From: an uncultured Pseudomonadota bacterium
GTDB lineage: Bacteria > Babelota > Babeliae > Babelales > CAIQNR01
Assembly: GCA_964547785.1 (NCBI GenBank)
Contig: CAZJPB010000001.1
Coordinates: 1 to 41,322, forward strand
DNA length: 41,322 nucleotides
Direction: 5' to 3'
Every line of letters begins with the position of its first letter. The stretch's first letter is position 1. Positions 6,578-41,322 of this stretch are shown in pieces. Position numbers and translations under genes: made by a program. The notes under the pieces were generated by a model that worked only from the letters and a program-made list of their open reading frames with translations, did not search any database and was not told where the DNA came from.

Positions 6578-7060
6578 AAGCGCTGTGCTTGCAACATCAA
6601 TTGCATAGAGCAAAAAATTATTTTTATACAGAGGATAAAGAGCGATCATCGCACCATTAAAAAATTTTATGCAAAAAAATAACAGCAAAATAATCAAAAT
6701 ATCTTTGCTGCCTTTTATACGAATAATACGTCTTGAAGCATCTACTACTTCTGGTTGTTTTTTTAAAATACGCCACATTCCAAGACCAATGCCAAGCAAT
6801 GCTCCTAAAAGATAGATTCTAACAATACACCAACTAATGCCATATTTTTTGTACATAAAAAATAACGATGCACTTAAAAAAAATGATGAGAAAATTATTA
6901 AAGAAAAAAATGAAACAGCACGATCTTTTAAAGCATACATTCCACGCATTATGCAAAATAATAATGCAAACCAAGCCCAGACAGGCACTTGTACAAAAAA
7001 ATCTATCATAAAAACTTTCAACGTAAAAAAATAGCACGCATTCCAAAAGCAACCAACCAT
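6500..7060 (-). CDS. polytopic membrane protein, family not recognised
   Basis: 186-aa ORF with several hydrophobic helices. Its 3' end overlaps the convergent murB by 78 nt. An alternative ATG at 7007-7009 (MIDFF...) would avoid overlap with the upstream gene. Confidence 0.5.
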   Translation of the reverse strand: MVGCFWNACYFFTLKVFMIDFFVQVPVWAWFALLFCIMRGMYALKDRAVSFFSLIIFSSFFLSASLFFMYKKYGISWCIVRIYLLGALLGIGLGMWRILKKQPEVVDASRRIIRIKGSKDILIILLLFFCIKFFNGAMIALYPLYKNNFLLYAIDVASTALLSGFLMGRVIQCWRLLQQGKFVSRY

Positions 7061-7368
7061 AAAGGCATTCCAACAAAATTATATTCCCGTCTATCTAAAT
7101 TTGAACTTATAAAAGCATTATGCATAAGAACATGAGCAGCTCCTGCAAACAAAAATAGTGTCCTAAAACTTACATCTCTTGAAGCCAAACCTGCTCCTAA
7201 ATAAAGCCCAGGAATTATTACTGCAGAAGTAAAATGAGTAGCTTTTTCTGCGCAAGTTGAATTAACATCTTGCGGCCAAAAATAATTTTTCATCGCGGCA
7301 ACACTTGTGTTCACATAACTTTGAACACAAAACAGACTCAAGATCGTTAGTGCTTTTATTTTTTTCAT
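7018..7368 (-). CDS. small signal-peptide membrane protein, tandem paralog A
   Basis: 116 aa. The N-terminal ~60 aa are nearly colinear with the neighbouring ORF 7399-7776 (CVQSYVN.SVAAMKNYFWP...STCAEKATHFTSA.IIPGL). Confidence 0.6.
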   Translation of the reverse strand: MKKIKALTILSLFCVQSYVNTSVAAMKNYFWPQDVNSTCAEKATHFTSAVIIPGLYLGAGLASRDVSFRTLFLFAGAAHVLMHNAFISSNLDRREYNFVGMPLWLVAFGMRAIFLR

Positions 7369-7398
7369 ATTTTTTCCTTATAAAATTTAAAAATTATT

Positions 7399-7776
7399 TT
7401 AAGCAGACAGTCCGCCGCCCAAAACAGCTGCCCAAGCCAATACACCAACAGCTCCCGAAACAAGAGATGCTCCAAAAAGATTACTTCCTGGCCTTCCTGT
7501 ATGAATACTTGCAGTACTTAAAGTATTATGCATAGCGACATGAGCAATTCCTGCACACAAAAATGGTATTTTGAAAATTGAATCTCTTAACAAACAACTT
7601 GCTCCTAAACAAAGTCCTGGAATTATTGCTGCTGAAGTAAAATGAGTAGCCTTTTCTGCGCAAGTTGAACTAACACCTTTCGGCCAGAAATAATTTTTCA
7701 TCGCAGCGACACTTGCGTTCACATAACTCTGAACACACAATAAGCTTAAAAAAGCTCCAATTTTTATATATTTCAT
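7399..7776 (-). CDS. small signal-peptide membrane protein, tandem paralog B
   Basis: 125 aa, paralog of 7018-7368. Gly/Ala-rich hydrophobic C-terminus. Confidence 0.6.
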   Translation of the reverse strand: MKYIKIGAFLSLLCVQSYVNASVAAMKNYFWPKGVSSTCAEKATHFTSAAIIPGLCLGASCLLRDSIFKIPFLCAGIAHVAMHNTLSTASIHTGRPGSNLFGASLVSGAVGVLAWAAVLGGGLSA

Positions 7777-7882
7777 TTTTTTCCTTTTACTTATATAGAA
7801 TATTTACTATTAGTCATTTTATTATAAATAAAAGGGTTTGTCAAATGCGAAAAATAAAAAGTTAAGCTTGGATATTTGTTTT

Positions 7883-8650: not shown

Positions 8651-8832
8651 ACTCTCGTCATCCTCAGGGAGCAATGCGACCGCAAGGATCCAGACTTCGA
8701 AAGTTTTTTTAAAAATTATTAACTTTTTTATTTCTAAACTAACTGCTTTCTGTTATAAAAATCACACCATAGCTATTACAAAACAACAACTGGATCCTTG
8801 CGGTCGCGCTGCTCCCTGAGGATGACGAGAGT
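8651..8832. repeat. GC-rich palindromic element, diverged family member (E1)
   Basis: The 43-bp arms 8651-8693 and 8790-8832 are inverted repeats with 2 mismatches. The arm termini (tcgtcatcct...aggatcca) are shared with the elements at 35561 and 41029. The 96-bp AT-rich interior makes a strong GC contrast with the arms. Confidence 0.85.
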
Positions 8833-10691: not shown

Positions 10692-10759
10692 AAAAAATAA
10701 GAGCCACTTTTTTACAAGCAGCTCTTATTTTTCATCATTACGCTCTTTTTTTTATTTTT
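10691..10759. repeat. conserved 3'-flank module, copy R1 (contains a terminator hairpin)
   Basis: aaaaaaataagagccacttttttacaagcagctcttatttttcatcattacgctctttttttta recurs with few changes at 11709-11774 and 12899-12963, each time directly downstream of a paralogous minus-strand gene. Confidence 0.9.
10697..10732. terminator. bidirectional rho-independent terminator (tgt on plus strand, paralog P1 on minus strand)
   Basis: Stem ataagagc (10697-10704) pairs with gctcttat (10721-10728). Extra inner pairs are possible. A-run upstream and T-run downstream give a T-tract on both strands. Confidence 0.6.
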
Positions 10760-11671
10760 TTATAAATAATAAGGATTTCCAGTTAATTCAACAGATATTT
10801 TATCATACCTTGTTGGATCTATTAACTTGTCTGAACGAGAATAGCGCCTACAGTAGGCCAAACTCTCATCACTGTTTTCATCTTGCAAAGAATAATATTT
10901 TGGATTAGCTAATAACAATTCTTTTCTAGTATCAAAAATAGGAGATATTTCAGGATATTTTTCTTCTAAACGTTTCACATTCAAGCTGAAAGTTGGCATC
11001 AACAAAGCTAATATGCTAGTTACTCTTGCAGTTGCTGCACAAAATTCTATACGTAATTCAGAAAATTCTGCTGCTGTAAGATTCGGTTTTGTTGCAGAAT
11101 TTTTTAATTCATTAAATCTATCTTTTAATTCTTCAGCAAATTTTTTTGTTTCTGGATTTTTATTTTTATTGCATACTATTTTTACAAGATCATTCAATAC
11201 ATTAATTTCAGCTGCCATTAAGCTTTGCAAGAGATTAATTTCTTTTTCATCAATTTTTGTACTTAATACTGAAAAAAAAGATGAATCACTTTTTACAGTA
11301 TTTTTTTTAAAAAAATACTTACCCAAACAAAATGATCCATATGCTACTCCGGCTACCGTTACAAATGGCATAAAATTTCTTGCAACAAATCCTTTAGTTC
11401 GGTCCCAAAATGATGGCTTTGCCGCTTGCTTTACAAATTCCCTCATAGTATTTGGAGTTTTTGGCGCTTGCTCAGAGAAAGATCTTTTTCCTGCAGCTTG
11501 AGCTAAAGAAGCAACTGATGATGCTTTGGTTGACCTTAAAGCAGTAGTCATAAGACCTACTCTGCTTGCAGCTGCGCCATTTTTAAAAGTAGTTCGCATT
11601 GCAGCCATTGGTTGAACTTGATTAACAACACTAAGTGCGCATAATAGCGCTATTGAATATATAGATTTCAT
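10760..11671 (-). CDS. secreted/membrane-anchored protein, conserved-leader family member P1
   Basis: 303 aa. The N-terminal ~115 aa are homologous to P2 (MKSIYSIALLCALSVVNQVQPMAAMR...ASRVGLM.TALRST...ASLAQAAG.RSFS...KGFVARNFMPFVT). The C-terminal ~190 aa are unrelated to P2 and P3. Confidence 0.7.
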   Translation of the reverse strand: MKSIYSIALLCALSVVNQVQPMAAMRTTFKNGAAASRVGLMTTALRSTKASSVASLAQAAGKRSFSEQAPKTPNTMREFVKQAAKPSFWDRTKGFVARNFMPFVTVAGVAYGSFCLGKYFFKKNTVKSDSSFFSVLSTKIDEKEINLLQSLMAAEINVLNDLVKIVCNKNKNPETKKFAEELKDRFNELKNSATKPNLTAAEFSELRIEFCAATARVTSILALLMPTFSLNVKRLEEKYPEISPIFDTRKELLLANPKYYSLQDENSDESLAYCRRYSRSDKLIDPTRYDKISVELTGNPYYL

Positions 11672-11708
11672 TAGTATTTCCTTATAGTTTTTATAAAATT
11701 ATTGTGAT

Positions 11709-11774
11709 AAAAAAAAAGAGCCACTTTAAATAAACAAGCAACTCTTATTTTTCATCATTACGCTCTTTTTTTTA
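11709..11774. repeat. conserved 3'-flank module, copy R2 (degenerate hairpin)
   Basis: aaaaaaaaagagccactttaaataaacaagcaactcttatttttcatcattacgctctttttttt. The second half is identical to R1. The hairpin stem is weakened. Confidence 0.85.
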
Positions 11775-12782
11775 TTATCTTCCTAAAAGCCAGTTCCAAG
11801 TACGAGTCAAATAGCCTTCTTCAACTTTTGTTAAAAAATCTATACCTTCTCGTTCGCTTAAAGCTTTAATTGCTGCTTTTGTTGCTTCTTTTGTTTGACG
11901 CGCAGTTTTCCAATTTTTATCGCAATATTCTAATGCTTTTCTCATTTGTTTAATAAGTTTTTTAGAATCTTTACAATCAAGCCCTTGAGCAAAAACTATG
12001 TCTACTTCTCCATTAGGAAAAAATAAATATCTGTGATAATAAATATTTTGTTGTTTTTGCATATTTTCATCAATCATACATAAAGTTCTTTGAACTGCTT
12101 TTTCCAATTCACTAAATGAATCATAATTCGAATGAGTATAAAATCCATATTCATATAAAGTAGAACCACCTTCATGATGCAATTCTGCTAAAGCCAAATA
12201 TTCAATGTTTCCTGTTTTGTATGGATGCCCACCCTGAAGATAAACAAGTTCTAATGCATAGATTTCACCACCAACACCAATAGTTGTTCTTTCTGTTCTT
12301 GATAGATTAACATCATATTTACCATCAAGTTTTCTTTGCTTAACGTTATCCCAAACATTTTGCTCAGCTTGAACTGGCGCATCTTGAGCTAGTGTTCCTT
12401 TAAGTTTAGAAGCTTCATACATTGCGTGCACTTGCTTTACTTCTTTACGATATGCCAATGCTGCAACCGAAAACAATCCAGTTGCTGTTACGAATGGCAT
12501 AAAATTTCTTGCAACAAATCCTTTGGTTCGAGTTGCAGCTTGCTTTGCAGCTTGTTGCATACTTTCTACCGTTCCTGCAACTTTTGCAGAGAAAGATCTT
12601 TGCCCTGCAGCTTGAGCTAATGAAGCAATTGGTGCTCTCGTTGATCTTAAAGCAGTAGCCATAAGACCTACTCTGCTTGCAGCCATTGCATTTCTTGCAC
12701 CAGCTCGCATTGCAGCCATTGGTTGAACTTGATTAACAACACTAAGTGCGCATAACAGCGCTATTGAATATATAGATTTCAT
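11775..12782 (-). CDS. secreted/membrane-anchored protein, conserved-leader family member P2
   Basis: 335 aa. The first ~76 nt of the CDS match P1 with 1 mismatch. The C-terminal domain is unrelated to P1. The extreme C-terminus (EEGYLTRTWNWLLGR) resembles that of P3 (KKGYFARFADWALQK). Confidence 0.7.
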   Translation of the reverse strand: MKSIYSIALLCALSVVNQVQPMAAMRAGARNAMAASRVGLMATALRSTRAPIASLAQAAGQRSFSAKVAGTVESMQQAAKQAATRTKGFVARNFMPFVTATGLFSVAALAYRKEVKQVHAMYEASKLKGTLAQDAPVQAEQNVWDNVKQRKLDGKYDVNLSRTERTTIGVGGEIYALELVYLQGGHPYKTGNIEYLALAELHHEGGSTLYEYGFYTHSNYDSFSELEKAVQRTLCMIDENMQKQQNIYYHRYLFFPNGEVDIVFAQGLDCKDSKKLIKQMRKALEYCDKNWKTARQTKEATKAAIKALSEREGIDFLTKVEEGYLTRTWNWLLGR

Positions 12783-12898
12783 TGTATTTCCTTTATATTT
12801 TAATGAAAAAAGCTATTTCTAATTGAAATAATATCATAAAGAATGATTATTGCAAGCGGACTATGCAAGCCTTTTAAGCCTGTCAGCTTAATTTTTAA

Positions 12899-12963
12899 TT
12901 AAAAAATAAGAGCCACTTTTTTACAAGCAGCTCTTATTTTTTAAAAATTATGCTCTTTTTTTA
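12899..12963. repeat. conserved 3'-flank module, copy R3
   Basis: aaaaaaaataagagccacttttttacaagcagctcttattttttaaaaattatgctcttttttt. The hairpin is identical to R1. Confidence 0.9.
12906..12942. terminator. rho-independent terminator hairpin downstream of P3
   Basis: Stem ataagagc (12906-12913) pairs with gctcttat (12930-12937), flanked by an A-run and a T-run. Confidence 0.55.
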
Positions 12964-13629
12964 TTATTTTTGTAGCGCCCAATCAGCAAAGCGTGCAAAA
13001 TAACCTTTTTTGTCTTTTTCTAAAAAAAACGAATATTTTCTACGATCTCTTTTTTCTAAATCTTTTATGGCTTTGATTAAACCTGGAATTTCATCTTTAG
13101 AAGCATGAGCAAATAAATCAGTCAAAGTATCTTGAAATAATAAATCCTTTGAGTCTCTTTCCGTTGCATTATAAATTACATAAATCTTCTTATCTGTTAT
13201 TAAAGCACGTTTTGTATAATCTCTATTTTCTCGAAGAGACGTTTCACCTTCTAAACAAATATCTTCTACTATTTTTGGATCACAAGTTAAGCCTACACCT
13301 AAACGAGCAGAAAAAGCTGATGGAAATTTTTCATCAAAACACCAAACCGTTTGTTCTTCCAATCTACCAATATTTTGTTCTTCTAGTTTTTTTGCTAATG
13401 TTCTTTCTGCTAGTGCTTTTGCATGAACAATCTTTTGATTTGCAACATTATAGTAATGTTGAGGAGAATGAGGATATGCCAATCGTGCTACAGTAAGCAA
13501 TCCAGTTGCCGTTACGAATGGCATAAAATTTCTTGCCACAAATCCTTTAGCTCCATTCGCAGCCATTGGTTGAGCTTGATTAACAACACTAAGTGCGCAC
13601 AAAAGCGCTATTGCATATATAGATTTCAT
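12964..13629 (-). CDS. secreted/membrane-anchored protein, conserved-leader family member P3 (short leader)
   Basis: 221 aa. Same signal peptide (MKSIYAIALLCALSVVNQAQPMAA) and TM segment (KGFVARNFMPFVTATGL) as P1/P2. It lacks the ~45-aa Arg/Ala/Ser-rich segment between them. Confidence 0.7.
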   Translation of the reverse strand: MKSIYAIALLCALSVVNQAQPMAANGAKGFVARNFMPFVTATGLLTVARLAYPHSPQHYYNVANQKIVHAKALAERTLAKKLEEQNIGRLEEQTVWCFDEKFPSAFSARLGVGLTCDPKIVEDICLEGETSLRENRDYTKRALITDKKIYVIYNATERDSKDLLFQDTLTDLFAHASKDEIPGLIKAIKDLEKRDRRKYSFFLEKDKKGYFARFADWALQK

Positions 13630-13680
13630 TGTATTTCCTTATCGTTTAATGAAAAAACTAGCAAAATAACTTGTTTTATT

Positions 13681-13760
13681 TTCTAAAAAAATGAATATTT
13701 TCTGTCATCTCTTTTTTCTAAATCTTTTACGGCTTTGATTAAACCTGGAATTTTTTCTTC
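13681..13760 (-). pseudogene. remnant of a fourth P-family gene (3'-terminal fragment)
   Basis: About 90% identical by eye to 13018-13092 inside P3. On the minus strand it translates as EKIPGLIKAVKDLEKRDDRKYSFF then a stop, compared with P3 EIPGLIKAIKDLEKRDRRKYSFF. Confidence 0.6.
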
Positions 13761-13765
13761 ATAAA

Positions 13766-26279: not shown

Positions 26280-28124
26280 TTATTCAACGGTAACTGATTT
26301 TGCAAGGTTTCGCGGGCGATCGATTGAGCAACCTTTAACTTTTGCAATTGCGTACATTAACAATTGCATAATGCCTGTCATTTGAATAATGCCAAAATGA
26401 TGTTCCGTTTTTGGAAGCACAATTGCATGATCTGCAAGGTCTTTGAGTTCCTGTTGCCCTTCAAAAACAAATGCTAAAATGTGTCCCTTGCGCGCTTTGA
26501 TTTCTTGCGCGCTTGAAACTAACTTTTGATAAATGATCGGATCAGGATGAGAAAAAATACAGACAGGTGTATGCTCATCAATAAGTGCCAAAGGACCATG
26601 TTTTAGTTCGCCTGCAGGATATGCTTGAGAAAAAATATACGCTATTTCTTTAAGTTTTAATGCTGCTTCTAGCGCAAAAGGATAGCTGCTATGCCTTCCT
26701 AAAAAAATAAAATTTGCATAACGCGCATACAAAGGCGCCAAAACATCAAAAATATATTCTTTATAAGCAACAAGATTATTTTCTAAAAACTCACCTGCTA
26801 ACAATAATGCATCCTGTTCATGTTCAAATTGATTTTTATCAATAATACCACGTTCTAATGCAATCTTTTGAGCTAACCAATAGAGAGAAACGATTTGTGT
26901 GGTGAATGCTTTTGTTGATGCAACGGCCATCTCTGGGCCTGCATACGTCAATAAAACGCCATCAGCTTCGCGCGCTAATGAACTAGAAAGAACATTTGTT
27001 ACGGCTAATATTTTTTGATTATATTTTTTTAAAAATCGAGCGATTTCTAACGTATCTGCTGTCTCTCCAGACTGAGAAACCAAAATATATACTATTTTTT
27101 CTCGAGGGAAAAAAGTGCGATACCTAAATTCAGAAGCTAAGGCCGCTGTTGTCGGAATAGCAACATGTTCTTCGAAAAAAAATTCAGCTATCCTGCCTGC
27201 ATGCCACGACGTTCCGCAACCAATAATTTTTATAGCATCGATATTTTTAAAAAAATCGCCTGAAAAACCGATTGTGGTAAAAAACGAATCTTGCATATTT
27301 TGATAATGCGCAATTGTTTTATAAATAGCTGATTTTTGTTCGTAAATTTCTTTAAGCATAAAATGTTCATAGCCATCTTTTTCTGATGCTATCCACACTT
27401 TATCAAGAAATTGAACGGTAAGTCTAAGTGGTGTATTAAAAAAATCGACTGCCTGAGCCTGCTCTTTTGAAATATAAACAATGGTATGCTCTGGAATAAA
27501 AATAACTTTTTCTACTAATCCAGAAAACGCGAGCACATCGGACGCTACAAACATTTCGTTATCGCCAACGCCGATGCACAAAGGAGAATTTTTTCGCAAT
27601 GCAATCATAACATCCGGAAAATCTTCCATCATAATCACGATTGCATAAGCACCAACAAGACGCGATGCGAGTATCTGCGCAGCATATCGATAATCTTGAT
27701 GTTCGGTTAATGCTTGCTCAAAAAGATGGGCTATGATTTCGCTATCAGTTTGCGAAGAAAAAATATGCCCTAAAGCTTCTAGTTCAGCTTTTAAAGCAAC
27801 ATGATTTTCTATAATACCATTATGAACGACTGCAATTTTTTTTTTACAATCTAAATGAGGATGAGCATTGTTTTCGGAAGGAATGCCATGCGTTGACCAA
27901 CGAGTATGACCTATACCAACAAATCCATCAACAGCATTTTTATCTAAAGCAGCTTCTAACGAAGCTATGCCGCCAACCGTTTTTACGCATACAAGTTTTT
28001 GAGAATTTTTTTCGATACACGCAAAACCAGAAGAGTCATAGCCACGATACTCTAAACGAGAAAGCCCCTGCATCACCAAAGCACAACTTTTACGATGTCC
28101 TATATAACCAACAACGCTACACAT
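26280..28124 (-). CDS. glmS: glutamine--fructose-6-phosphate aminotransferase (isomerizing)
   Basis: 614 aa. N-terminal Cys nucleophile (MCSVVGYIG), GHTRWSTHG, two SIS domains, C-terminal ...AKSVTVE. Confidence 0.95.
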   Translation of the reverse strand: MCSVVGYIGHRKSCALVMQGLSRLEYRGYDSSGFACIEKNSQKLVCVKTVGGIASLEAALDKNAVDGFVGIGHTRWSTHGIPSENNAHPHLDCKKKIAVVHNGIIENHVALKAELEALGHIFSSQTDSEIIAHLFEQALTEHQDYRYAAQILASRLVGAYAIVIMMEDFPDVMIALRKNSPLCIGVGDNEMFVASDVLAFSGLVEKVIFIPEHTIVYISKEQAQAVDFFNTPLRLTVQFLDKVWIASEKDGYEHFMLKEIYEQKSAIYKTIAHYQNMQDSFFTTIGFSGDFFKNIDAIKIIGCGTSWHAGRIAEFFFEEHVAIPTTAALASEFRYRTFFPREKIVYILVSQSGETADTLEIARFLKKYNQKILAVTNVLSSSLAREADGVLLTYAGPEMAVASTKAFTTQIVSLYWLAQKIALERGIIDKNQFEHEQDALLLAGEFLENNLVAYKEYIFDVLAPLYARYANFIFLGRHSSYPFALEAALKLKEIAYIFSQAYPAGELKHGPLALIDEHTPVCIFSHPDPIIYQKLVSSAQEIKARKGHILAFVFEGQQELKDLADHAIVLPKTEHHFGIIQMTGIMQLLMYAIAKVKGCSIDRPRNLAKSVTVE

Positions 28125-28190
28125 CGCTACTCATTACTTTAAAAAGCATTCTGATTGTATTGATAAACACACCAAAACAATCAACCATTC

Positions 28191-28616
28191 TTAACGTTTT
28201 ACGAATTGGAATTTACGACGTGCACCCTTTTGACCAGGTTTTTTACGCTCTTTATTACGAGGATCAACGGTCAAGAAGCCATTTTCTCTTAAAAGCGCAC
28301 GAAATGAATCATCTTCTTTAACCAAAGCGCGAGCTATGCCAAGTCTTATTGCATCAGATTGAGCACATTTTCCGCCACCATAAACATTTACAACGATATC
28401 GTATTTAACAAGAGCATCGCACACAATAAGTGATTTGATAGCATTTGCTCTAGTTTCTTCGGTAGGAAAATAATCAGCACATTTCATAGAATTGATCGCA
28501 ACGCCACCTTGGCCTTTACGAAGCCATACACGAGCAACAGCTGATTTACGACGCCCAACAACACCAATAATTGATTGATTTTTTACTGTTTTTTGTTCTT
28601 CTTTAGCTCTGACCAT
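28191..28616 (-). CDS. rpsI: 30S ribosomal protein S9
   Basis: S9 motifs: GRRKSAVARVWL, GGGKCAQSDAIRLGIARAL, and a C-terminal ...ARRKFQFVKR. AAGGGTGG RBS. Confidence 0.95.
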   Translation of the reverse strand: MVRAKEEQKTVKNQSIIGVVGRRKSAVARVWLRKGQGGVAINSMKCADYFPTEETRANAIKSLIVCDALVKYDIVVNVYGGGKCAQSDAIRLGIARALVKEDDSFRALLRENGFLTVDPRNKERKKPGQKGARRKFQFVKR

Positions 28617-28669
28617 CTGATCTTATACCACCCTTAAAAAGGAATTTTTTATTATTTTATGATTTTGAA

Positions 28670-28697
28670 AGTCTAACACGATCATGAATCTTGTCAA
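28670..28697 (-). promoter_or_regulatory. candidate sigma70-type promoter for rpsI
   Basis: On the minus strand, TTGACA (28692-28697) is followed by a 16-nt spacer and TAGACT (28670-28675), about 54 nt upstream of the rpsI ATG. This is pattern match only. Confidence 0.3.
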
Positions 28698-28712
28698 TTC
28701 TAACGATTTTTC

Positions 28713-28787
<75 letters not shown>

Positions 28788-28850
28788 AGTCTAAAAAAGC
28801 TCAGGATAACCCTTTACAAAGCTTGAGTCAAAATTGCACACAAATGTTTA

Positions 28851-29237
28851 TTAAAAAAAGTTATTTGATCGATCTCTATACGACTGCTCTTCTACCAATT
28901 CTTGGCACGACAAACAACGCGTTGCATTCGGATAGAGCTCAAGGCGTCGCTGAGAAATATTCTGCTGACAATCTGCGCAAATACCATATTCTCCAGAATC
29001 TAGCATTTTGAGAGCTTTTTCGATCACCTTGTATTCTTCATATTCATTATTATGCAAAGAGCTTTTCAAGCTTTCAAAAGCCGCTGAAATTGCTTGATCA
29101 CCTGGATCTTGCACTTGGCTTCCTGAATCATCATCTTGCTGTAACTGAGCAATAGCATGCTCTAATTCTTTTTTTCGATTCAGCAGTACTGTTTTTATTT
29201 TTTCAAGTTCTTTGATGGTTCTTTTTGCTTCACTCAC
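28851..29237 (-). CDS. DksA/TraR-family C4 zinc-finger protein
   Basis: 128 aa. Coiled-coil N-terminal half and C-terminal CADCQQNISQRRLELYPNATRCLSCQ (CxxC-x17-CxxC). Confidence 0.75.
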   Translation of the reverse strand: MSEAKRTIKELEKIKTVLLNRKKELEHAIAQLQQDDDSGSQVQDPGDQAISAAFESLKSSLHNNEYEEYKVIEKALKMLDSGEYGICADCQQNISQRRLELYPNATRCLSCQELVEEQSYRDRSNNFF

Positions 29238-29703
29238 TTTTTTTCCTTTTATTTTGAAAAAATTTTTTTAATATGGCCGCGCATTCCTCTTCATTAATAC
29301 CCCCTTTAATCACGGAAATATTCTTGTTATATAAAGGAATAAAAAAATCTCTGTCAAGATGATTCCCAAAAAGATGCGAATGCGCTCCAAAAAAAACATG
29401 CTTTATTCGGCTCAATCGCAAGGCTCCCATACACATTAAACAGGGCTCAAGTGTAACATACAAACGACAGTTTTCAAGCCGCCAATTATTTTTTTGCAAA
29501 GCAGCTTTTTGTAGTGCTTCCATTTCTGCATGAGCAGTTTGTGTTTTGTTGCGCTCGACCTTATTAGAGCCGTATCCAATTATCTCTTCTTTATCTGAAA
29601 CAATAAGCGCTCCAATCGGAACCTCTTGCTCTTCAAAAGCCTGCTTGGCATAGTGTAAAGCAATCTGCATATAATATTCATCTGAAGCGTTATCTTGATT
29701 CAT
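29230..29703 (-). CDS. tadA: tRNA-specific adenosine deaminase
   Basis: CDA-fold zinc motifs HAEMEAL and PCLMCMGAL. 157 aa. Its 3' end overlaps the start of the downstream DksA/TraR-like gene (28851-29237) by 8 nt. Confidence 0.9.
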   Translation of the reverse strand: MNQDNASDEYYMQIALHYAKQAFEEQEVPIGALIVSDKEEIIGYGSNKVERNKTQTAHAEMEALQKAALQKNNWRLENCRLYVTLEPCLMCMGALRLSRIKHVFFGAHSHLFGNHLDRDFFIPLYNKNISVIKGGINEEECAAILKKFFQNKRKKSE

Positions 29704-29886
29704 AAAAAAAGCCTTTATTAAAAAAATTGTATTTTTTGATTTTGTCCTGTTAGTAGTGAATTATCATTTTTTAAAGTATACTTACATACTATAATTTTTA
29801 GTTTTTTTGTATAAAAAATAAAAATAAAATCAGAACTATATAACGTTTGTATTAAAAATGAGTAGGAATGCAAAAGGGGCCATTGT

Positions 29887-32295
29887 ATGTCTAAAGAATT
29901 AGAAAAAAAAAATGAATATGGTGCGACCTCAATTCGCGTCATGGAAGGACTTGAAGCGGTACGAAAACGTCCTGCGATGTATATCGGATCTACTGGACCG
30001 CAAGGATTGCATCATTTAGTCTACGAAGTCGTTGACAACTCTGTTGATGAAGCGCTTGCAGGCTACTGTACCACTATAAAAGTTATTTTACATACCGATG
30101 GATCGTGCTCTGTAGAAGATAATGGTCGCGGTATTCCTACTGATATTCATCCTACGGAAAAAATATCTGCTGCTGAAGTTGTATTAACCAAACTGCATGC
30201 CGGCGGTAAATTTGACAAAGATTCTTATCGTTTTTCTGGCGGTCTTCATGGCGTCGGTGTTTCTGTAGTCAACGCTCTTTCTATCAAACTTTATTTAGAA
30301 ATTTATAAAAACGGTTCAGTCTATAGCCAAAGCTACGAAAAAGGTAAACCGCTTGCACCGCTAGCACTCTCTGGAGAAACAACAAAACCAAATGGCACCA
30401 TGGTTCGCTTTATTCCTGATGGCTCAATTTTCACCGAAACTACGACCTTCTCGTTTGATACGCTCTCTGCTCGTTTACGTGAACTTGCTTTTTTAAACAA
30501 AGGCTTGCGTATCAATATTTTTGATGAATCAACCGCAAAAGAACATTCTTTCTTTTTCGAAGGTGGCATTGTTTCGTTAATTGAATTTATTAACGAGAAA
30601 AAAAATCCTATTTTTCCTGAAGTTATTTATTTTCAGCAAGAAGACAAAGACTATGTTCTTGAAATCGCAATGCAATACAACGAAGGATATGCAGAACAAT
30701 TATATTCATTCGTGAACAACATTAATACGATTGATGGCGGAACGCACGTTGCTGGCTTTAAAGCTGCACTTACTAAAACATGTAATAAACGCGCAACTAC
30801 TTTAGGAATGCTCAAACAAGGCAATAATCTTTCGAGCGAAGATGTTCGAGAAGGATTAGTCGCTGTTATTAATATCAAAGTTCCTGAACCACAATTTGAA
30901 GGTCAAACAAAAGGAAAACTTGGCAACAGCGAAGTCAAACGGATTGTAGAAACTTGGTCATTTGCAAGTCTTGATACCTACTTTGAAGAACATCCTGCGA
31001 TTATTAAAAAAATTATTCAAAAAGCTGAACTTGCTCAACGAGCGCGAGAAGCGGCAAAAAAAGCTCGCGATTTAACACGCAGAAAAACTGAACTTGAAAG
31101 TACTATTTTGCCAGGAAAGCTCACTGATTGCTCTAACGAAAATCCTGCTGACACTGAATTGTTTATCGTAGAAGGAGAATCTGCAGGCGGTTCTGCAAAA
31201 CAAGGACGAGATCGTTTTTTTCAAGCAATCTTGCCACTCAAAGGTAAAATTTTAAACGTCGAAAAAGCGCGCCTTGATCGCATTCTTTCTAACGAAGAAA
31301 TTAAAGCGCTCATTGCTGCTATTGGTGCAGGAATTGCTGAAGAATTAAATGTAGAAAAAGTTCGTTATCACAAAATTATTTTAATGACTGACGCTGACGT
31401 TGATGGCTCGCATATTCGAACATTACTTTTAACTTTCTTTTTTAGATATATGAAACCAGTCATTGAAAATGGTTATCTCTATATCGCTCAACCGCCACTT
31501 TATAAAGCAAAATTAGGCAAAAAAGAACAGTATCTTAAAGATGAACGCGCTTTGCGAGATTTTTTATTTGATTGGGCTCGAGAACAACTTATATGCACCA
31601 TCGACAATCATAATTTAACCGAAATAGCTTGGTTAAATTATTTACAAAATATCACTAAATACGAAAACGAACTTGATAAATTATGTATCATCTTCAGATT
31701 AAATCATTCTCAAGCGCATAAACTTTTACTGACTATTCGCGAACATAATCTTTCTTTACATTCAGAACCTCATGATATTATTGACGCATTACGATCTTCT
31801 TTTAAAGGATATAAAGTTTCTATCACCTGCCAAGAAGCACAAAAAGAACTTGTAGATGCACCTTTAGAATGGATCACTTTTGAAATTTTACACAAATCAT
31901 GGCAAGTGCCTTTAACATTTTTTACTTGCGAAGAAACATATCTTGTTTTAAAAAATATTGATGCACTTTTTGATGCTGAAAAATCTTGGGTGCTCGAAAT
32001 AAAAGATAAAAATAAATCCGTAACAGGAACTGGCATCATTAATTTAGTAACTATGATTAGAACCATCAGCAAACCATACATGCATATACAACGCTACAAA
32101 GGTCTTGGAGAAATGAACGCTGAACAATTGTGGGAAACCGCAATGGATCGTGACACACGTTCTTTATTGCAAGTCTCTATCGAAGATGCGTTAGAAGCTG
32201 ATGCTTGGTTTGCAACGTTAATGGGTGATGATGTAAGTGGAAGAAAGGAATTTATTGAAAAAAATGGCCGATTTGCAAAAAACCTCGATGTTTAA
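29887..32295 (+). CDS. gyrB: DNA gyrase subunit B
   Basis: 802 aa. Contains [24 protein letters not shown], the GHKL ATPase motifs, the Toprim EGESAGG and [10 protein letters not shown], and the C-terminal [17 protein letters not shown]. No gyrA is adjacent. Confidence 0.97.
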
Positions 32296-34879: not shown

Positions 34880-34951
34880 ATCCTTGTATCTATGCCCTCT
34901 GTGCGTGGTATTATAAAAAACATACAATACTTTGCAAAAAAAGGAGCGCGT

Positions 34952-35488
34952 ATGAAAATAAAGCTATTTGTTTTATTATTTTTTAATCAAGTCTTAGAAC
35001 CTTCGGTCCCTGTTCATTCTGAATTATCAACACAAGTTACTGATACTATTTTGCCAGGATCGCAAGAAGTTCATCAAAAACTAGGTGTTCAAGCAGTCGA
35101 AATTGAATACGCCCTTATCACCTTTACTAAACGAACAAATGATGAAGCTTTGCTTTCGCATTTAGCGCTGCAATGGAAAGGTGATTATATCGAAAAGCTT
35201 CCCGCCGCGCTCTACACAAAACAATATGATCATATGCCACTCAAAGCGCTAGAAGAGAATTTAGTAAGCGAAGGCAAGTGGAATAAAGAAAAACAGACAC
35301 TCTCTTTTACGCTTAGAAAACCGCTTTATTTGTATGGCACTACTACATTTTCTCTCGTTTTTTCGGTCACGCAAGAACTAGAAGCAAAAATAAAACAAGG
35401 CTCATTTGTGATTATTTCATCTTCTTTGCCACGAGCTTTTCAGCAATCTGTGCCAGAAAAAACACTCATTCTTTCTTACCATTGTTAA
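34952..35488 (+). CDS. secreted protein (ORFan)
   Basis: The ATG at 34952 is preceded by an AAGGAG RBS. Signal-peptide-like MKIKLFVLLFFNQVL. The ORF-track start at 34892 is less likely. Confidence 0.55.
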   Translation: MKIKLFVLLFFNQVLEPSVPVHSELSTQVTDTILPGSQEVHQKLGVQAVEIEYALITFTKRTNDEALLSHLALQWKGDYIEKLPAALYTKQYDHMPLKALEENLVSEGKWNKEKQTLSFTLRKPLYLYGTTTFSLVFSVTQELEAKIKQGSFVIISSSLPRAFQQSVPEKTLILSYHC

Positions 35489-35560
35489 ATTGCTGATAAT
35501 ATAAATTTCTTCAATTCAAACATAAAAGTATTAATAATTTTTTGAAAAAATCTCGAATTC

Positions 35561-35839
35561 TCGTCATCCTGAGGCGCGATCCAAGCGCCGTGAGGATCCA
35601 TCAGCCGTCGCGCACATGCGCTATGGCCAGATGTCGCAGCATAGAAAAGCGAAGATGGACAGAATTTATAAAGCATAGTTTTTGATGTACTGTATCATCA
35701 TTATAATATTTTTATAATTGATTCGATTGCGTTGTTTTCTGAAAATAATAATTTGAAAAAATAATCTATAATCATTAGTTTTTTAATTCCAGTAACGCCT
35801 GGATCCTCACGGCGCTTGGATCGCGCCTCAGGATGACGA
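35561..35839. repeat. GC-rich palindromic element E2 (MITE-like / inverton-like), perfect 40-bp terminal inverted repeats
   Basis: tcgtcatcctgaggcgcgatccaagcgccgtgaggatcca (35561-35600) is the exact reverse complement of 35800-35839. A ~68-bp GC-rich extension follows the left arm, then a ~130-bp AT-rich core. A nearly identical arm plus extension lies at 41029. Confidence 0.9.
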
Positions 35840-35893
35840 TCAAAGAGACAAATCATTATTTTGAAACTAAAATTAAATATAAAAAGGAGTTTT

Positions 35894-37243
35894 ATGGCAC
35901 GCATTGTAATTTTAGGAGCAGGCCTTACCGGCCTTTCAACCGCTTATCATCTTGAAAAAAATAATATTTTTGATTTTTCTATCTTCGAAAAAGAAGAGAC
36001 TGTCGGCGGATTATGCAGATCAGTAACAGAAAATGGTTTTACCTTTGATTTTACGGGCCACTTGCTGCACGCAAATGATCCTTATTTTTTTAATTTTTTA
36101 GAAACCATTGTTGGACTCCAAAACCTTGCAACCATCAACCGCCGTTCCTTTATTTATTCTCATGATGCGTATACAGCCTATCCTTTTCAGACAAATCTGT
36201 ATGGATTGCCGCACGAAGTCATTATTGAATGCATTACCGGATTTGTAGAAAAACCAGCATTACAAAAAAATCCTCGCTCATTTTATGATTGGGCTTTGCA
36301 AAAATTTGGTTCCGGCATCACAAAACATTTTTTTAAACCGTATCAAGAAAAAATATTTGCGCACGATGTTACAAAAATCACTGCTTCGTGGACAGGAAGA
36401 TTTGTTCCAGAAACATCATTGGCCACTATTTTGCGCGGTGCATTTAATGAACCTAAAGACCAGAGCATCGGTTACAACGCTCAATTTTTTTATCCAAAAC
36501 AGGGCGGCATTAATTTTTGGATAACTAAATTAGCTCAGCACATTAAAACTAACATACAGACAGATGCAAAAGTTACCGAGATTGACCTGAAACATAAAAT
36601 GGTATTTTTTGAAAACGGGCAAACCGAGCAATACGAAATTCTGATTAATACCATGCCTCTTGATCGTTTTCTAAAATTTTTAAAAACATCGACTGCATCA
36701 TCTTTATCATCGTGCGCCAAAAAATTACTCTGCAACTCGGTCATTAATTTTAATCTTGGCATCAACAGGCCCGACATTTCTGATAAACATTGGATTTATT
36801 TGCCAGAAAAAAAGTTTATTCCCTACCGGCTTGGATTTTATCATAATTTTTCTGAATTAATGGCTCCTAAAAATTGCAGTTCGCTCTACGGAGAAATTGC
36901 ATACCTGCATAAACTTAATCAGCCAGAATCTGAGCTCATCGCGCAGGCAAAAAAACAATTGCAAAAATTACTATCGTTTACTGATCAAGAAATAATTGCT
37001 GAAAAAGTTATACAGATTGATCATGCCTATGTTTTGTATGATTTTTGGCGAGAAAAAAATATTGCAAACATTCATCAAAACTTAATTGATCAAAATGTTT
37101 ATTCAATTGGCAGATACGGCGCATGGAAATATGCAAGTATGCAGGAAAGCCTACTGGATGGTAAGGCAATGGCAGAAACATTGCTAGAGCACGAAAACAT
37201 TATAGCTCCTTACAAAAACATTAATCTTTGCAAAGAGCTATAA
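35894..37243 (+). CDS. FAD-dependent oxidoreductase (amine-oxidase / UDP-galactopyranose-mutase-like fold)
   Basis: Dinucleotide-binding N-terminus (ARIVILGAGLTGLSTAY...E...GGLCRS) and C-terminal GRYGAWKYASMQESLLDG. The ATG at 35894 is preceded by an AAGGAG RBS. The ORF-track start at 35861 is TTG. Confidence 0.8.
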   Translation: MARIVILGAGLTGLSTAYHLEKNNIFDFSIFEKEETVGGLCRSVTENGFTFDFTGHLLHANDPYFFNFLETIVGLQNLATINRRSFIYSHDAYTAYPFQTNLYGLPHEVIIECITGFVEKPALQKNPRSFYDWALQKFGSGITKHFFKPYQEKIFAHDVTKITASWTGRFVPETSLATILRGAFNEPKDQSIGYNAQFFYPKQGGINFWITKLAQHIKTNIQTDAKVTEIDLKHKMVFFENGQTEQYEILINTMPLDRFLKFLKTSTASSLSSCAKKLLCNSVINFNLGINRPDISDKHWIYLPEKKFIPYRLGFYHNFSELMAPKNCSSLYGEIAYLHKLNQPESELIAQAKKQLQKLLSFTDQEIIAEKVIQIDHAYVLYDFWREKNIANIHQNLIDQNVYSIGRYGAWKYASMQESLLDGKAMAETLLEHENIIAPYKNINLCKEL

Positions 37244-37265: not shown

Positions 37266-38147
37266 TTATTGCATCCAGCTAACTTCGTCACCAAAACCTG
37301 GTACTGGTGCCAATACTGGCGCTGGCCCTTTACCTGTTGGCGTTGCCCAGACTGCTGATGCTCCCAATAAATCTTTTACAGGCATTGCTGCTGGCATTAC
37401 TGGCGAAGGAAGCTCAACTAACGTTTGATTAAAAGCTTCTAGTGCTGCAACTTTTTCAGTTAAAGTATCAACTTGCATTTGTAGATATTCAATATGAGCA
37501 ATGAGAGCCATATTAAACATGGCCACATCCTCTGGTAAGCTAGGAATAAAAAATCTTTTATTATCAATAATAAATTTTGCTAATCCAGTACTTTCTCTTT
37601 CTTGAGAAGAACCTAAAACTGATCTATAATATTGGTTTACATAAGCAATAGGATTACGATATATTCCAGATTTTGCAAATCTTGAAATTCCAAACCCTTC
37701 ATCATTTTTTGCTCTATCAAGATTAGTCCTTACATCAATATTTTGAACTTTTTGAGCCATTACTGGCGCTACACTTGCTGCCGCCACTACTGGCGTTGCT
37801 GTTTTTAATGCATAGTATTGAGTTTCTAATTGCGAGAGCGGCATATTTAATGTACGTCTTAATTCCATTAATTTTTGCATATTAACATTACTTAAATCAG
37901 CTAAATTTTCCAATGTTACATCCGGTTTCAAAGATCCATCTGAATCTCGAACAACTCTGTCAAAGAGACATTGCATGCTACGTATCATCGTCTTATCGTC
38001 ATTTGTAAGATCTTTTATGTCTTTACTTAACATTCTTTGAAATCCAGAATCTGATAAAAAATTGCTTAAAGGCACCGAGCTCGCTCCTTGCATTAACTGA
38101 CTTGATAAACATGCGATTGTCATAATCATTATTATTGAATTTTTCAT
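37266..38147 (-). CDS. secreted protein with C-terminal coiled coil and Pro/Ala-rich tail (ORFan)
   Basis: 293 aa with a signal-peptide-like N-terminus (IIMIMTIACLSSQLMQGAS). The segment ALIAHIEYLQMQVDTLTEKVAALE resembles ALIQHIISLQKEIFSLQKEVADLK of the next gene. Confidence 0.6.
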   Translation of the reverse strand: MKNSIIMIMTIACLSSQLMQGASSVPLSNFLSDSGFQRMLSKDIKDLTNDDKTMIRSMQCLFDRVVRDSDGSLKPDVTLENLADLSNVNMQKLMELRRTLNMPLSQLETQYYALKTATPVVAAASVAPVMAQKVQNIDVRTNLDRAKNDEGFGISRFAKSGIYRNPIAYVNQYYRSVLGSSQERESTGLAKFIIDNKRFFIPSLPEDVAMFNMALIAHIEYLQMQVDTLTEKVAALEAFNQTLVELPSPVMPAAMPVKDLLGASAVWATPTGKGPAPVLAPVPGFGDEVSWMQ

Positions 38148-38184: not shown

Positions 38185-38580
38185 TTATGACAATAAACTT
38201 TCCGCTAATGCTACATCTATTTCGGATTGAATCCGCGCTTCAACTTTTAAGTCAGCAACTTCTTTTTGCAAAGAAAAAATTTCTTTTTGTAAACTAATAA
38301 TATGTTGAATTAATGCGTAAACTTTTGTAGCAAGATCTGTCATAGAACTAGCTTGATTTACCGTAAAATCATGAATTTGAAAATCATTAAACATAGATCC
38401 CTGCCAAGCTGCATACCCTTTTGTATCAAAAAATAGCCTTGCATATTCTTTAGGGTGTAATGCCATTCGATCTAATACAGAAACGCTTGCTCTCATTGGG
38501 GCTGCTGCTGCGGCAGCCTGTATATGACTGCTTACACTTAAAACAATTAATCCAATCGCGAAAAATATATTCTTTTTCAT
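38185..38580 (-). CDS. small secreted coiled-coil protein (ORFan, distant paralog of 37266-38147)
   Basis: 131 aa with signal peptide MKKNIFFAIGLIVLSVSSHIQAAAAAA and an internal SLQKE repeat. Confidence 0.55.
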   Translation of the reverse strand: MKKNIFFAIGLIVLSVSSHIQAAAAAAPMRASVSVLDRMALHPKEYARLFFDTKGYAAWQGSMFNDFQIHDFTVNQASSMTDLATKVYALIQHIISLQKEIFSLQKEVADLKVEARIQSEIDVALAESLLS

Positions 38581-40917: not shown

Positions 40918-41028
40918 AGAAAATTTTTGATACCGAGAGTGTTGATATTTTCTTGTAATTAATAACCGCCAAAGATTATCAGCTTAAAAATAAAAAGTTA
41001 ATAATTTTTAAAAAAAAATTTCGAATGT

Positions 41029-41322
41029 TCGTCATCCTGAGGCGCGATCCAAGCGCCGTGAGGATCCATCAGCCGTCGCGCAAAGCGCTATGGCCAGATG
41101 TCGCGTCGTAGTGAAATGAAGACGGACAGAATTTACTGAAATTAAAAATTTAATGATTATAAAAAGAATAATCAAAATTTTACCCAAATCTTTAATTATT
41201 CTTCTGGAACAATATAATTGAATCAATTGTAAAAAAATATAACGTGATGTGATGATACAGTAAAAAAATTGCTTTATAAATCCTGGATCCTCACGGCGCT
41301 TGGATCGCGCCTCAGGATGACG
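41029..41322. repeat. GC-rich palindromic element E3 (second copy of the E2 type; right arm cut by the window end)
   Basis: The left arm 41029-41068 is identical to E2's. The right arm 41284-41322 is the inverse copy. The extension is ~85% similar to E2's by eye. The AT-rich core is homologous to the E2 core but in reverse orientation. Confidence 0.9.

Follow-up and report, generated by a model that had tools for sequence, protein, structure and literature searches.

What is the perfect inverted repeat that lies directly upstream of a flavin oxidoreductase gene in an uncultured bacterium of the Babeliales (Dependentiae): a mobile element, a switch that controls the gene, or neither? The repeat, here called E2, is located on contig CAZJPB010000001.1, within a stretch of 41,322 nucleotides that was analyzed as a whole (the window). 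A preliminary description considered it a candidate for either a miniature inverted-repeat transposable element (MITE) or a phase-variable inverton. We found that E2 is very probably one copy of a non-coding mosaic repeat family of around 300-400 bp, which is primarily selfish, is built on facing repetitive extragenic palindromic (REP) hairpins with a CGTC tag, and resembles the intergenic mosaic elements of Neisseria (NIMEs), the bacterial interspersed mosaic elements (BIMEs) and the REPINs.

Structure of E2 and its relatives in the population

The arms of E2 (35561-35600 and 35800-35839) are 40 nt each, 100% complementary and separated by 199 nt, as the preliminary description had it. Each arm indeed folds on itself with an outer stem (ATCCT/AGGAT), an inner stem (GGCGC/GCGCC) and a 7-nt loop (DNA fold -8.2 kcal/mol). 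The reported asymmetry of the interior was likewise recovered, as a GC-rich stretch of 62 nt (35601-35662, 56% GC; the G module) is followed by an AT-rich core; the GC content falls from 62% (arms) to 21% (core). The bounds had to be revised: the repeat unit exceeds the inverted repeat of 279 bp, and the sequence conserved in the family runs from ~35500 to ~35881. Of the 405-bp spacer that separates the stop codon (35488) from the ATG (35894), E2 thus occupies 94%. From left to right, E2 is composed of an AT-rich outer module, an arm, G, the AT-rich core, the second arm and a second outer module (Table 1). All six frames contain stops, and none stays open for more than 65 codons.

E2 is not unique, as the window contains three inverted-repeat elements (E1, E2 and E3). 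The 40-mer of the E2 arm occurs three times (0 expected; 100 shuffles), not counting the right arm of E3, a copy clipped at the window end. The arms of E3 are identical to those of E2 and its core runs in the opposite sense. E1 has an AT-rich interior of 96 nt with an X-type module (see below) at its start; its arms have the same ends as those of E2, with a different inner stem and the tail CCAG. L105 and L107, two contigs from a public metagenome assembly, match the window at 99.8-99.98% identity. The former contains the complete E3, including the right-hand X module, and since an AT-rich module lies outside each arm the inverted repeat of E3 extends to around 90 nt per side.

The copy search advocated in the preliminary description was carried out by scanning metagenome contigs for the arm-G junction. 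This yielded 13 more loci from the same Babeliales population, so that at least 16 distinct elements or dimers were recovered in ~170 kb (window and 13 loci). No target-site duplication could be defined. All 16 distinct dimers have their tags outward, and all are intergenic save for overlaps with doubtful ORF calls. Type-A hairpins pair among themselves, and heterodimers are made of types B and C. When aligned, the outward flanks of the arms fell into three unrelated kinds of outer module (X, Y and Z), each around 70 nt, which have a common terminal motif (TATAGCWAAANCCWTCAGCTTARAAA). In the hairpin-bearing contigs a fuller motif (CTTCAGCTTAAAA) is found ~45-55 nt from the hairpin in most of its occurrences; the T motif as such (TCAGCTTA) is not enriched in the window (36 matches against 48 expected). 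Of the gene pairs that enclose an element, 5 are co-directional, 4 convergent and 3 divergent, which approximates random intergenic placement. The genes beside the other elements encode RuvC, MutL, PrmC, IscS and similar housekeeping proteins, and no transposase or recombinase domain was found there.

One locus showed nested elements. At L119 2775-3139 a complete element made of a Z module and a type-C arm breaks into a type-A arm with the initial 14 nt of a core; the partner type-C arm lies 1.6 kb off, past a 446-aa ORF without Pfam match.

The arms as CGTC-tagged REP hairpins

The CGTC-tagged REP superfamily is defined by an unpaired terminal CGTC tag (variants TGTC and CCTC), a stem that opens with an A-T pair followed by T-A, and a short unpaired CCA tail (Di Nocera, De Gregorio & Rocco 2013, BMC Genomics 14:522; PMC3733652). 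These REPs occur mainly as HH dimers (tags outside), either homo- or heterodimers, and no associated transposase gene was found. The four families described, CGTC-1 to -4, have 8-9-bp stems and 4-5-nt loops; CGTC-1 was equated with Neisseria dRS3, and RPE-4 and RPE-6 of Rickettsia were also placed in these families (PMC3733652).

In all six arms of the window an unpaired (T)CGTC precedes the first paired base, and CGTCATYC occurs 6 times in the window against 1.1 expected. The arms of E2 and E3 follow the pattern CGTC, AT CCT...AGG AT, CCA, and thus have the A-T/T-A opening and the CCA tail. Many interspersed, intergenic copies exist as HH dimers (16 of the 16 dimers in the contigs examined). 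Judged from these features, the arms of E2 belong to the CGTC-tagged REP superfamily and form an HH dimer. Given that the stem and loop of type A fit none of CGTC-1 to -4, type A is best regarded as a further CGTC variant. The likeness extends to the absence of an adjacent transposase gene and to the occurrence of some dimers within palindromes containing TTCGAA, as reported for Halothiobacillus (PMC3733652). The differences are that a bipartite stem (5 bp and 4-6 bp, parted by an internal loop) takes the place of a continuous 8-9 bp, that the type-A loop has 7 nt, and that the spacer measures 96-310 bp against the usual 20-100 bp.

Other identities for the arms and the G module were considered. 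The arms do not appear to be the ends of an insertion sequence (IS); they are CGTC-tagged REP hairpins in an HH dimer, whose left and right members may differ (B/C heterodimers). A ribozyme or K-turn was rejected after inspection by eye, since the CUGAGG...CGAAGG core, set against that of the hammerhead and against K-turns, lacks the required A9 or the register of the 3-nt bulge. The covariance-model search proposed earlier for the GC-rich module matched no Rfam family: the gathering search of the whole window returned only a tRNA, and the E-value search of 35400-35950 only chance snoRNA-like matches. A literature string search for GTCATCCTGAGG gave primer matches only.

The hairpin in other genomes

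A scan for TCGTCATCCTSAGG-N12-24-AGGATCC in a database with one genome per species, for which we roughly estimate 30 chance matches, recovered the hairpin pattern in at least 104 stretches from many phyla. Several to dozens of copies were present in three gammaproteobacterial metagenome-assembled genomes (MAGs), an Acidimicrobiia-labelled genome, a Vicinamibacteria genome, several Fibrobacter, a Caenarcanales MAG, a Patescibacteria MAG, Omnitrophica, Acidobacteriota and another Babeliales genome. Dependentiae and several of the other phyla matched lie outside the five phyla reported for CGTC REPs (PMC3733652). Within the 122 unique hairpins a 13-nt 5' handle (CGTCATCCTGAGG) and a 7-nt 3' handle (AGGATCC) are constant, and the inner stem is variable yet paired. 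No motif match was found in viral contigs, and blastn with arm plus G as query had no match among plasmids and phages. Nor did an all-against-all BLASTP of 1852 ORFs (from the 104 hairpin loci listed and the window) reveal a conserved neighbor gene; the clusters spanning multiple genomes were only heterogeneous or housekeeping.

The outer stem is fixed by the search pattern and therefore uninformative for covariation. For the inner stem, 18 hairpins of equal length gave a covariation of 0.153 against 0.067 +/- 0.016, a value reached by 0 of 500 shuffles, and slid controls collapsed; 12 cells were changed on both sides against 4.6 expected. These compensatory changes point to selection on the hairpin fold. 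The loops are of the C-GNA-G or CAAAG type in 44 of the 122 hairpins, C-GNA-G accounting for around one third. The C-GNA-G loop is known as an unusually stable mini-hairpin loop of DNA rather than as an RNA tetraloop, which hints that the fold matters in single-stranded DNA.

Two genomes deserve separate mention. The gammaproteobacterial MAG CAZELI01 (L002-L104) carries compact tags-outward heterodimers of 105 nt with a 25-30-nt spacer and constant handles, between which around six interchangeable inner stem-loops, mostly with C-GAA-G or C-GTA-G loops, are swapped like cassettes from copy to copy. In the Acidimicrobiia-labelled genome SLM_MC1B_68-O05 (L020 4145-6453) three hairpins stand in the same orientation, ~1.1 kb apart, unlike the dimers elsewhere.

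Position of the G module and orientation of the core

The G module holds a 35-nt imperfect palindrome, CATC-A-GCCGT-C-GCGC-ACAT-GCGC-T-ATGGC-CA-GATG, the first base of which is the last base of the CCA tail of the arm. Ten unique variants of G were recovered, and 18 of the 18 copies found directly follow the CCA tail (CCA, TCAGCC...GGACA, G). G is seated beside hairpins of all three types (A, B and C), is found to either side of the core and precedes two unrelated types of interior. It is absent from two family members, and no free-standing G was found in the ~170 kb examined.

The phase-variable inverton of the preliminary description would have a recombinase flip the interior, thereby turning a promoter toward or away from the oxidoreductase gene. 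The geometry is suggestive, with perfect inverted repeats around some 200 bp just upstream of a gene and a TATAAT inside. The hexamer is indeed present in the AT-rich core (35702-35707), and the start codon lies where it was placed, with 54 nt between the right arm and the ATG at 35894. As a promoter signal the hexamer did not hold up, since a promoter scan gave 2 sites in the region against 2.8 expected, neither of them on that hexamer; promoter-like hexamers are thus not above chance.

A further sign of a flip would be that the cores of E2 and E3 are opposite in sense relative to arm and G (reverse-complement score 63 against a null of 18.9 +/- 3.1; direct score 20.5). To compare orientations, each element with an E2-like core was placed in a frame with the X module on the left and the Y module on the right. 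In all six comparable elements with unlike outer modules the core then has the same orientation relative to those modules, while three of them carry G on the X side and one on the Y side, and two lack it. In a seventh element, whose core matches weakly, G is on the Y side, and E3 is flanked by X modules at both ends. E2 and E3 thus have cores that look inverted because the arm that G adjoins is not the same in the two. If the arms recombined, G and core would turn together, and such an arrangement was not seen among the elements compared.

Contig L107, from an independent assembly, is 99.77% identical to the window over 11.4 kb and carries E2 in the same orientation, with none of the 26 differences inside E2; both orientations were thus not seen in the two assemblies. 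In line with the earlier statement that the window lacks a transposase or recombinase, a Pfam scan of its ORFs of at least 100 aa, together with the precomputed domains for 26280-32295, returned no recombinase or transposase domain. Moreover, elements occur in all gene-pair contexts, and E3, which is of the same type, lies between convergent genes. Nothing therefore points to E2 as an invertible gene switch, and we consider this explanation extremely improbable. For annotation this removes a false lead, in that the inverted repeats before the oxidoreductase gene represent a repeat family and not a phase switch.

The 26 differences between the window and L107 are clustered, ten of them within 49 bp (30906-30954, in gyrB) and eleven within 110 bp (37095-37203, at the contig end), which suggests strain recombination tracts or assembly chimeras.

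The E2 and E3 sites in relatives

Two relatives, whose oxidoreductase shares 67% amino-acid identity, keep the gene order TonB-like / hypothetical / oxidoreductase / epimerase / DnaJ. In these, the site of E2 measures 99 and 116 bp and has no hairpin, and the site of E3 (after DnaJ) has 5 bp between the genes or an ordinary terminator, again without hairpin. As no hairpin was found in the 13-21 kb of the two syntenic relatives, the hairpin dimers appear lineage-specific.

Sites that lack the hairpins in relatives are also what one would expect of a classical cut-and-paste MITE, i.e. a deletion derivative of an IS with a transposase that recognizes the terminal repeats in double-stranded form and leaves a short target, for example TA, duplicated. 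E2 is small, multi-copy, non-coding and bounded by terminal inverted repeats, like the Correia elements and QMITE2 of Coxiella, which measure 150-400 bp and can be located in 5' or 3' untranslated regions; a REP is present in QMITE2 as well. Considering that the outermost conserved ends start with TATAGC, one could conceive of a TA target. However, the two arms can be different hairpins that have only the handles in common, as in the B/C heterodimers and nearly all gammaproteobacterial copies, and the covariation of the inner stem argues for selection on a fold and not on a binding sequence. The ends are thus kept as hairpin folds rather than as matching sequences. In addition, there are three unrelated types of outer module, and no IS or transposase domain was found in the ~170 kb of contigs, nor adjoining any element. 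The MITE proposal hence survives in part: E2 is a multi-copy, non-coding, intergenic element bounded by inverted repeats and its hairpins are absent in relatives, but the arms do not appear to be IS ends and no target-site duplication can be read. A cut-and-paste origin seems quite unlikely to us.

Constraint and RNA folding

Pairwise comparison of seven homologous elements gave an identity of 98-99% for the arms, 96% for the first 36 nt of G, 83% for the rest of G, 70% for the cores and 62-71% for the outer modules. As a purely passive repeat should decay evenly after insertion, the hairpins are either under selection or homogenized. One explanation is that the host exploits the arms as an RNA element (a 3'-end stabilizer, a terminator, an RNase III site or a small RNA) and thereby keeps them invariant while the remainder drifts. 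The predicted RNA folds are in line with this: arm plus G adopts the same three-hairpin fold in E2 and E3 (z -3.8 and -3.9), and the fold of the whole spacer amounts to -139 kcal/mol (z -11.9), with a 40-bp perfect duplex ahead of the ribosome-binding site. REPs have also been reported mostly downstream of genes, where they are thought to act as RNA. On the other hand, there is no Rfam match, a scan of the region found no intrinsic-terminator pattern, and divergent promoter regions are occupied as often as by chance. The C-GNA-G loops favored by the hairpin suggest DNA rather than RNA, and due to the symmetry of the dimers no strand preference can be read. A host RNA element as the primary explanation is therefore unlikely. 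From the modelled fold we infer that E2 may affect expression of the downstream gene. If both flanking genes are co-transcribed, E2 would place its 40-bp perfect RNA duplex before the ribosome-binding site.

In the modelled spacer RNA the left end of E2 (35503-35511, AAAUUUCUU) pairs with the region of the ribosome-binding site (35883-35891, AAGGAGUUU), which could be a chance pairing in AT-rich sequence.

Proposed explanation and comparison with known systems

In the mosaic family to which E2 very probably belongs, the constant and constrained parts would be the two GC-rich CGTC-REP hairpin modules that face each other with their tags outward. The exchangeable parts would be the X, Y and Z outer modules, the core, which is reminiscent of the RS elements of Neisseria, and the optional 62-nt G exactly after the CCA tail of either hairpin. 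The hairpins may be read as folded single-stranded DNA by an enzyme acting in trans, in the way that the RAYTs, Y1 transposases, read the GTAG REPs and REPINs. Such reading would spread, and perhaps homogenize, the hairpins, with the AT-rich modules as passengers that are carried along or recombined between copies, as in the NIMEs of Neisseria and the BIMEs of Escherichia coli. Spread via a single-strand transposase, which is argued by analogy, is a possibility that we put forward tentatively. A host RNA role (stabilizer, processing site) or use as an integration target may also apply, and these roles are not mutually exclusive.

The comparison with REPINs and E. coli BIMEs rests on the inverted pair of REP hairpins as the unit, on the heterologous pairs (Y/Z in BIMEs) and on the accessory motifs in between; published cases reach hundreds of copies per genome. 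The family of E2 differs in its tag (CGTC and not GTAG) and its much longer spacer, and no RAYT gene is known or was found in the DNA examined.

The NIMEs (dRS3-RS-dRS3) have GC-rich inverted repeats of the CGTC class around AT-richer RS modules of 50-150 bp, which fall in several families and are shuffled between copies. The resulting profile of GC peaks and troughs is shared by the E2 family, where CGTC-class repeats likewise flank families of AT-richer modules. Unlike the NIMEs, the elements found here form single or occasionally nested units and not long arrays, have arms of 40 nt rather than 20 nt, contain extra outer modules and G, and show no link to surface-antigen variation. This resemblance also bears on another explanation, namely that the hairpins are recombination or integration sites at which mosaic modules accumulate by repeated recombination. 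The arms have the tag, stem opening and tail of CGTC-1, which has been equated with dRS3 (PMC3733652), the dRS3-RS-dRS3 units with the same GC wave are targets of a phage-encoded transposase, and the modules are shuffled among copies, up to the nested element in L119. Considering that the elements are single units, that no such enzyme or prophage was found in the DNA examined and that viral contigs, phages and plasmids gave no motif match, we regard this explanation as highly unlikely.

Several observations weigh against the mosaic family of selfish REP dimers that we propose. The alignment of family ends gave no consistent target-site duplication; the ends were traced to a TATAGC-like motif, and the TTCGAA beside the arms could mask a duplication. 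No empty site was captured at the strain level, as the overlapping contigs carry the same elements. A mobilizing enzyme was not found in the ~170 kb of contigs, nor has one been found for CGTC REPs in published work (PMC3733652). Type A, with its stem of 5 bp, a 2x3 internal loop and 5 bp and its loop of 7 nt, falls outside the published range of 8-9-bp stems and 4-5-nt loops. The constant position of G is partly built in, since the retrieval pattern spans the arm-G junction, and so strict a conservation of the arms might stem from a host function instead of selfish spread. Finally, one of the relatives has sequence resembling a terminal motif and a Y-like outer module at the site orthologous to that of E2 (L108 9902-10000; CTTTCAGCTTATAACTAAGTGCTCATTCTTGC), beyond which come a small GC hairpin and an inverted copy (AATGAGAC). 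It could represent either a remnant or a forerunner of the element, and given its presence part of the mosaic may predate the hairpins, or the relatives may have lost them.

The conservation of the arms (98-99% against ~70% in the rest of the element) and the invariable location of G at the CCA tail point to an active process that reads the hairpins, and they provide testable leads on what mobilizes the CGTC REPs. In a more far-reaching version, the hairpin would define a clade of CGTC REPs spanning many phyla, with invariant handles and a free inner stem; a widespread and as yet undiscovered enzyme would read handles and geometry on single-stranded DNA, and G would be a mini-element nested at the CCA tail through insertion that is specific for site and orientation. 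We deem this version unlikely. If true, G would be direct evidence of active machinery and a handle on the mobilizer. A small Babeliales genome in which the copies are dense would offer a compact place to look for the enzyme of the CGTC REPs. As it stands, the data extend the CGTC-tagged REPs to the Dependentiae and several other phyla, add a variant with a bipartite stem and reveal NIME-like mosaics outside Neisseria.

The locus and its surroundings

The features of the locus are collected in Table 1. The second outer module of E2 could be assigned to type Y with only moderate confidence because it has the weakest Y score. The downstream gene has the ribosome-binding site AAAGGAG (35883-35889), and its product is 99% identical to protein P0001, the closest named homologs being from Candidatus Babeliales, by which the organism was assigned to the Babeliales/Dependentiae.

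Table 1. Modules of E2, the other elements of the family and the genes flanking E2 (positions in the window).
Feature	Position	Strand	Description
E1	8651..8832		Type-B arms 8651-8693 and 8790-8832, 43 nt, 95% complementary
Upstream gene	34892..35488	+	Hypothetical 198-aa protein; stop codon 11 nt before E2 start; synteny with relatives
E2 outer module, X type	35500..35560	+	AT-rich (16% GC); aligns with outward flanks of other family members; scores as X; terminal 'T motif' (TATAAATTTCTTCAATTCAAACATAAAAG), then ...TTTTTTGAAAAAATCTCGAATTC
E2 left arm	35561..35600	+	Type-A CGTC-tagged REP hairpin, by features matching PMC3733652; T-CGTC, ATCCT-GA-GGCGC-GATCCAA-GCGCC-GTG-AGGAT, CCA
G module	35601..35662	+	62 nt, GC-rich, TCAGCCGTCGCGC...GATGGACAG; optional in family
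AT-rich core	35663..35799	+	21% GC; ~70% identical among 7 family members; comparable to RS element of Neisseria NIME
E2 right arm	35800..35839	-	Same type-A CGTC REP hairpin, opposite orientation, tag outward
E2 outer module, probable Y type	35840..35881	+	GATCAAAGAGACAAATCATTATTTTGAAACTAAAATTAAATATA; Y score 16; stops just short of ribosome-binding site
Downstream gene	35883..37243	+	449-aa flavin amine-oxidase / protoporphyrinogen-oxidase-like protein; Pfam PF01593, PF13450
E3	40977..41322		Cut by window end; inverted repeat from 41029; X outer module 40977-41028, type-A arm 41029-41068, G 41069-41129, core 41130-41283, second arm 41284-41322

Two minus-strand hypothetical genes without Pfam match (37266-38147 and 38185-38580) separate the oxidoreductase and epimerase genes. 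As the epimerase gene directly follows the oxidoreductase gene in the two relatives (L108 and L109), these genes represent a lineage-specific insertion between E2 and E3. Further upstream, three tandem paralogous minus-strand genes without Pfam match (10760-11671, 11775-12782 and 12964-13629, within 10692-13764) are each followed by the same terminator-like repeat of ~41-48 nt (AAAAAATAAGAGCCAC...GCTCTTATTTTT). Finally, a direct repeat of 288 nt (7092-7379 and 7500-7787, 78% identical) extends over two small hypothetical genes (7018-7368 and 7399-7776), which are tandem paralogs.

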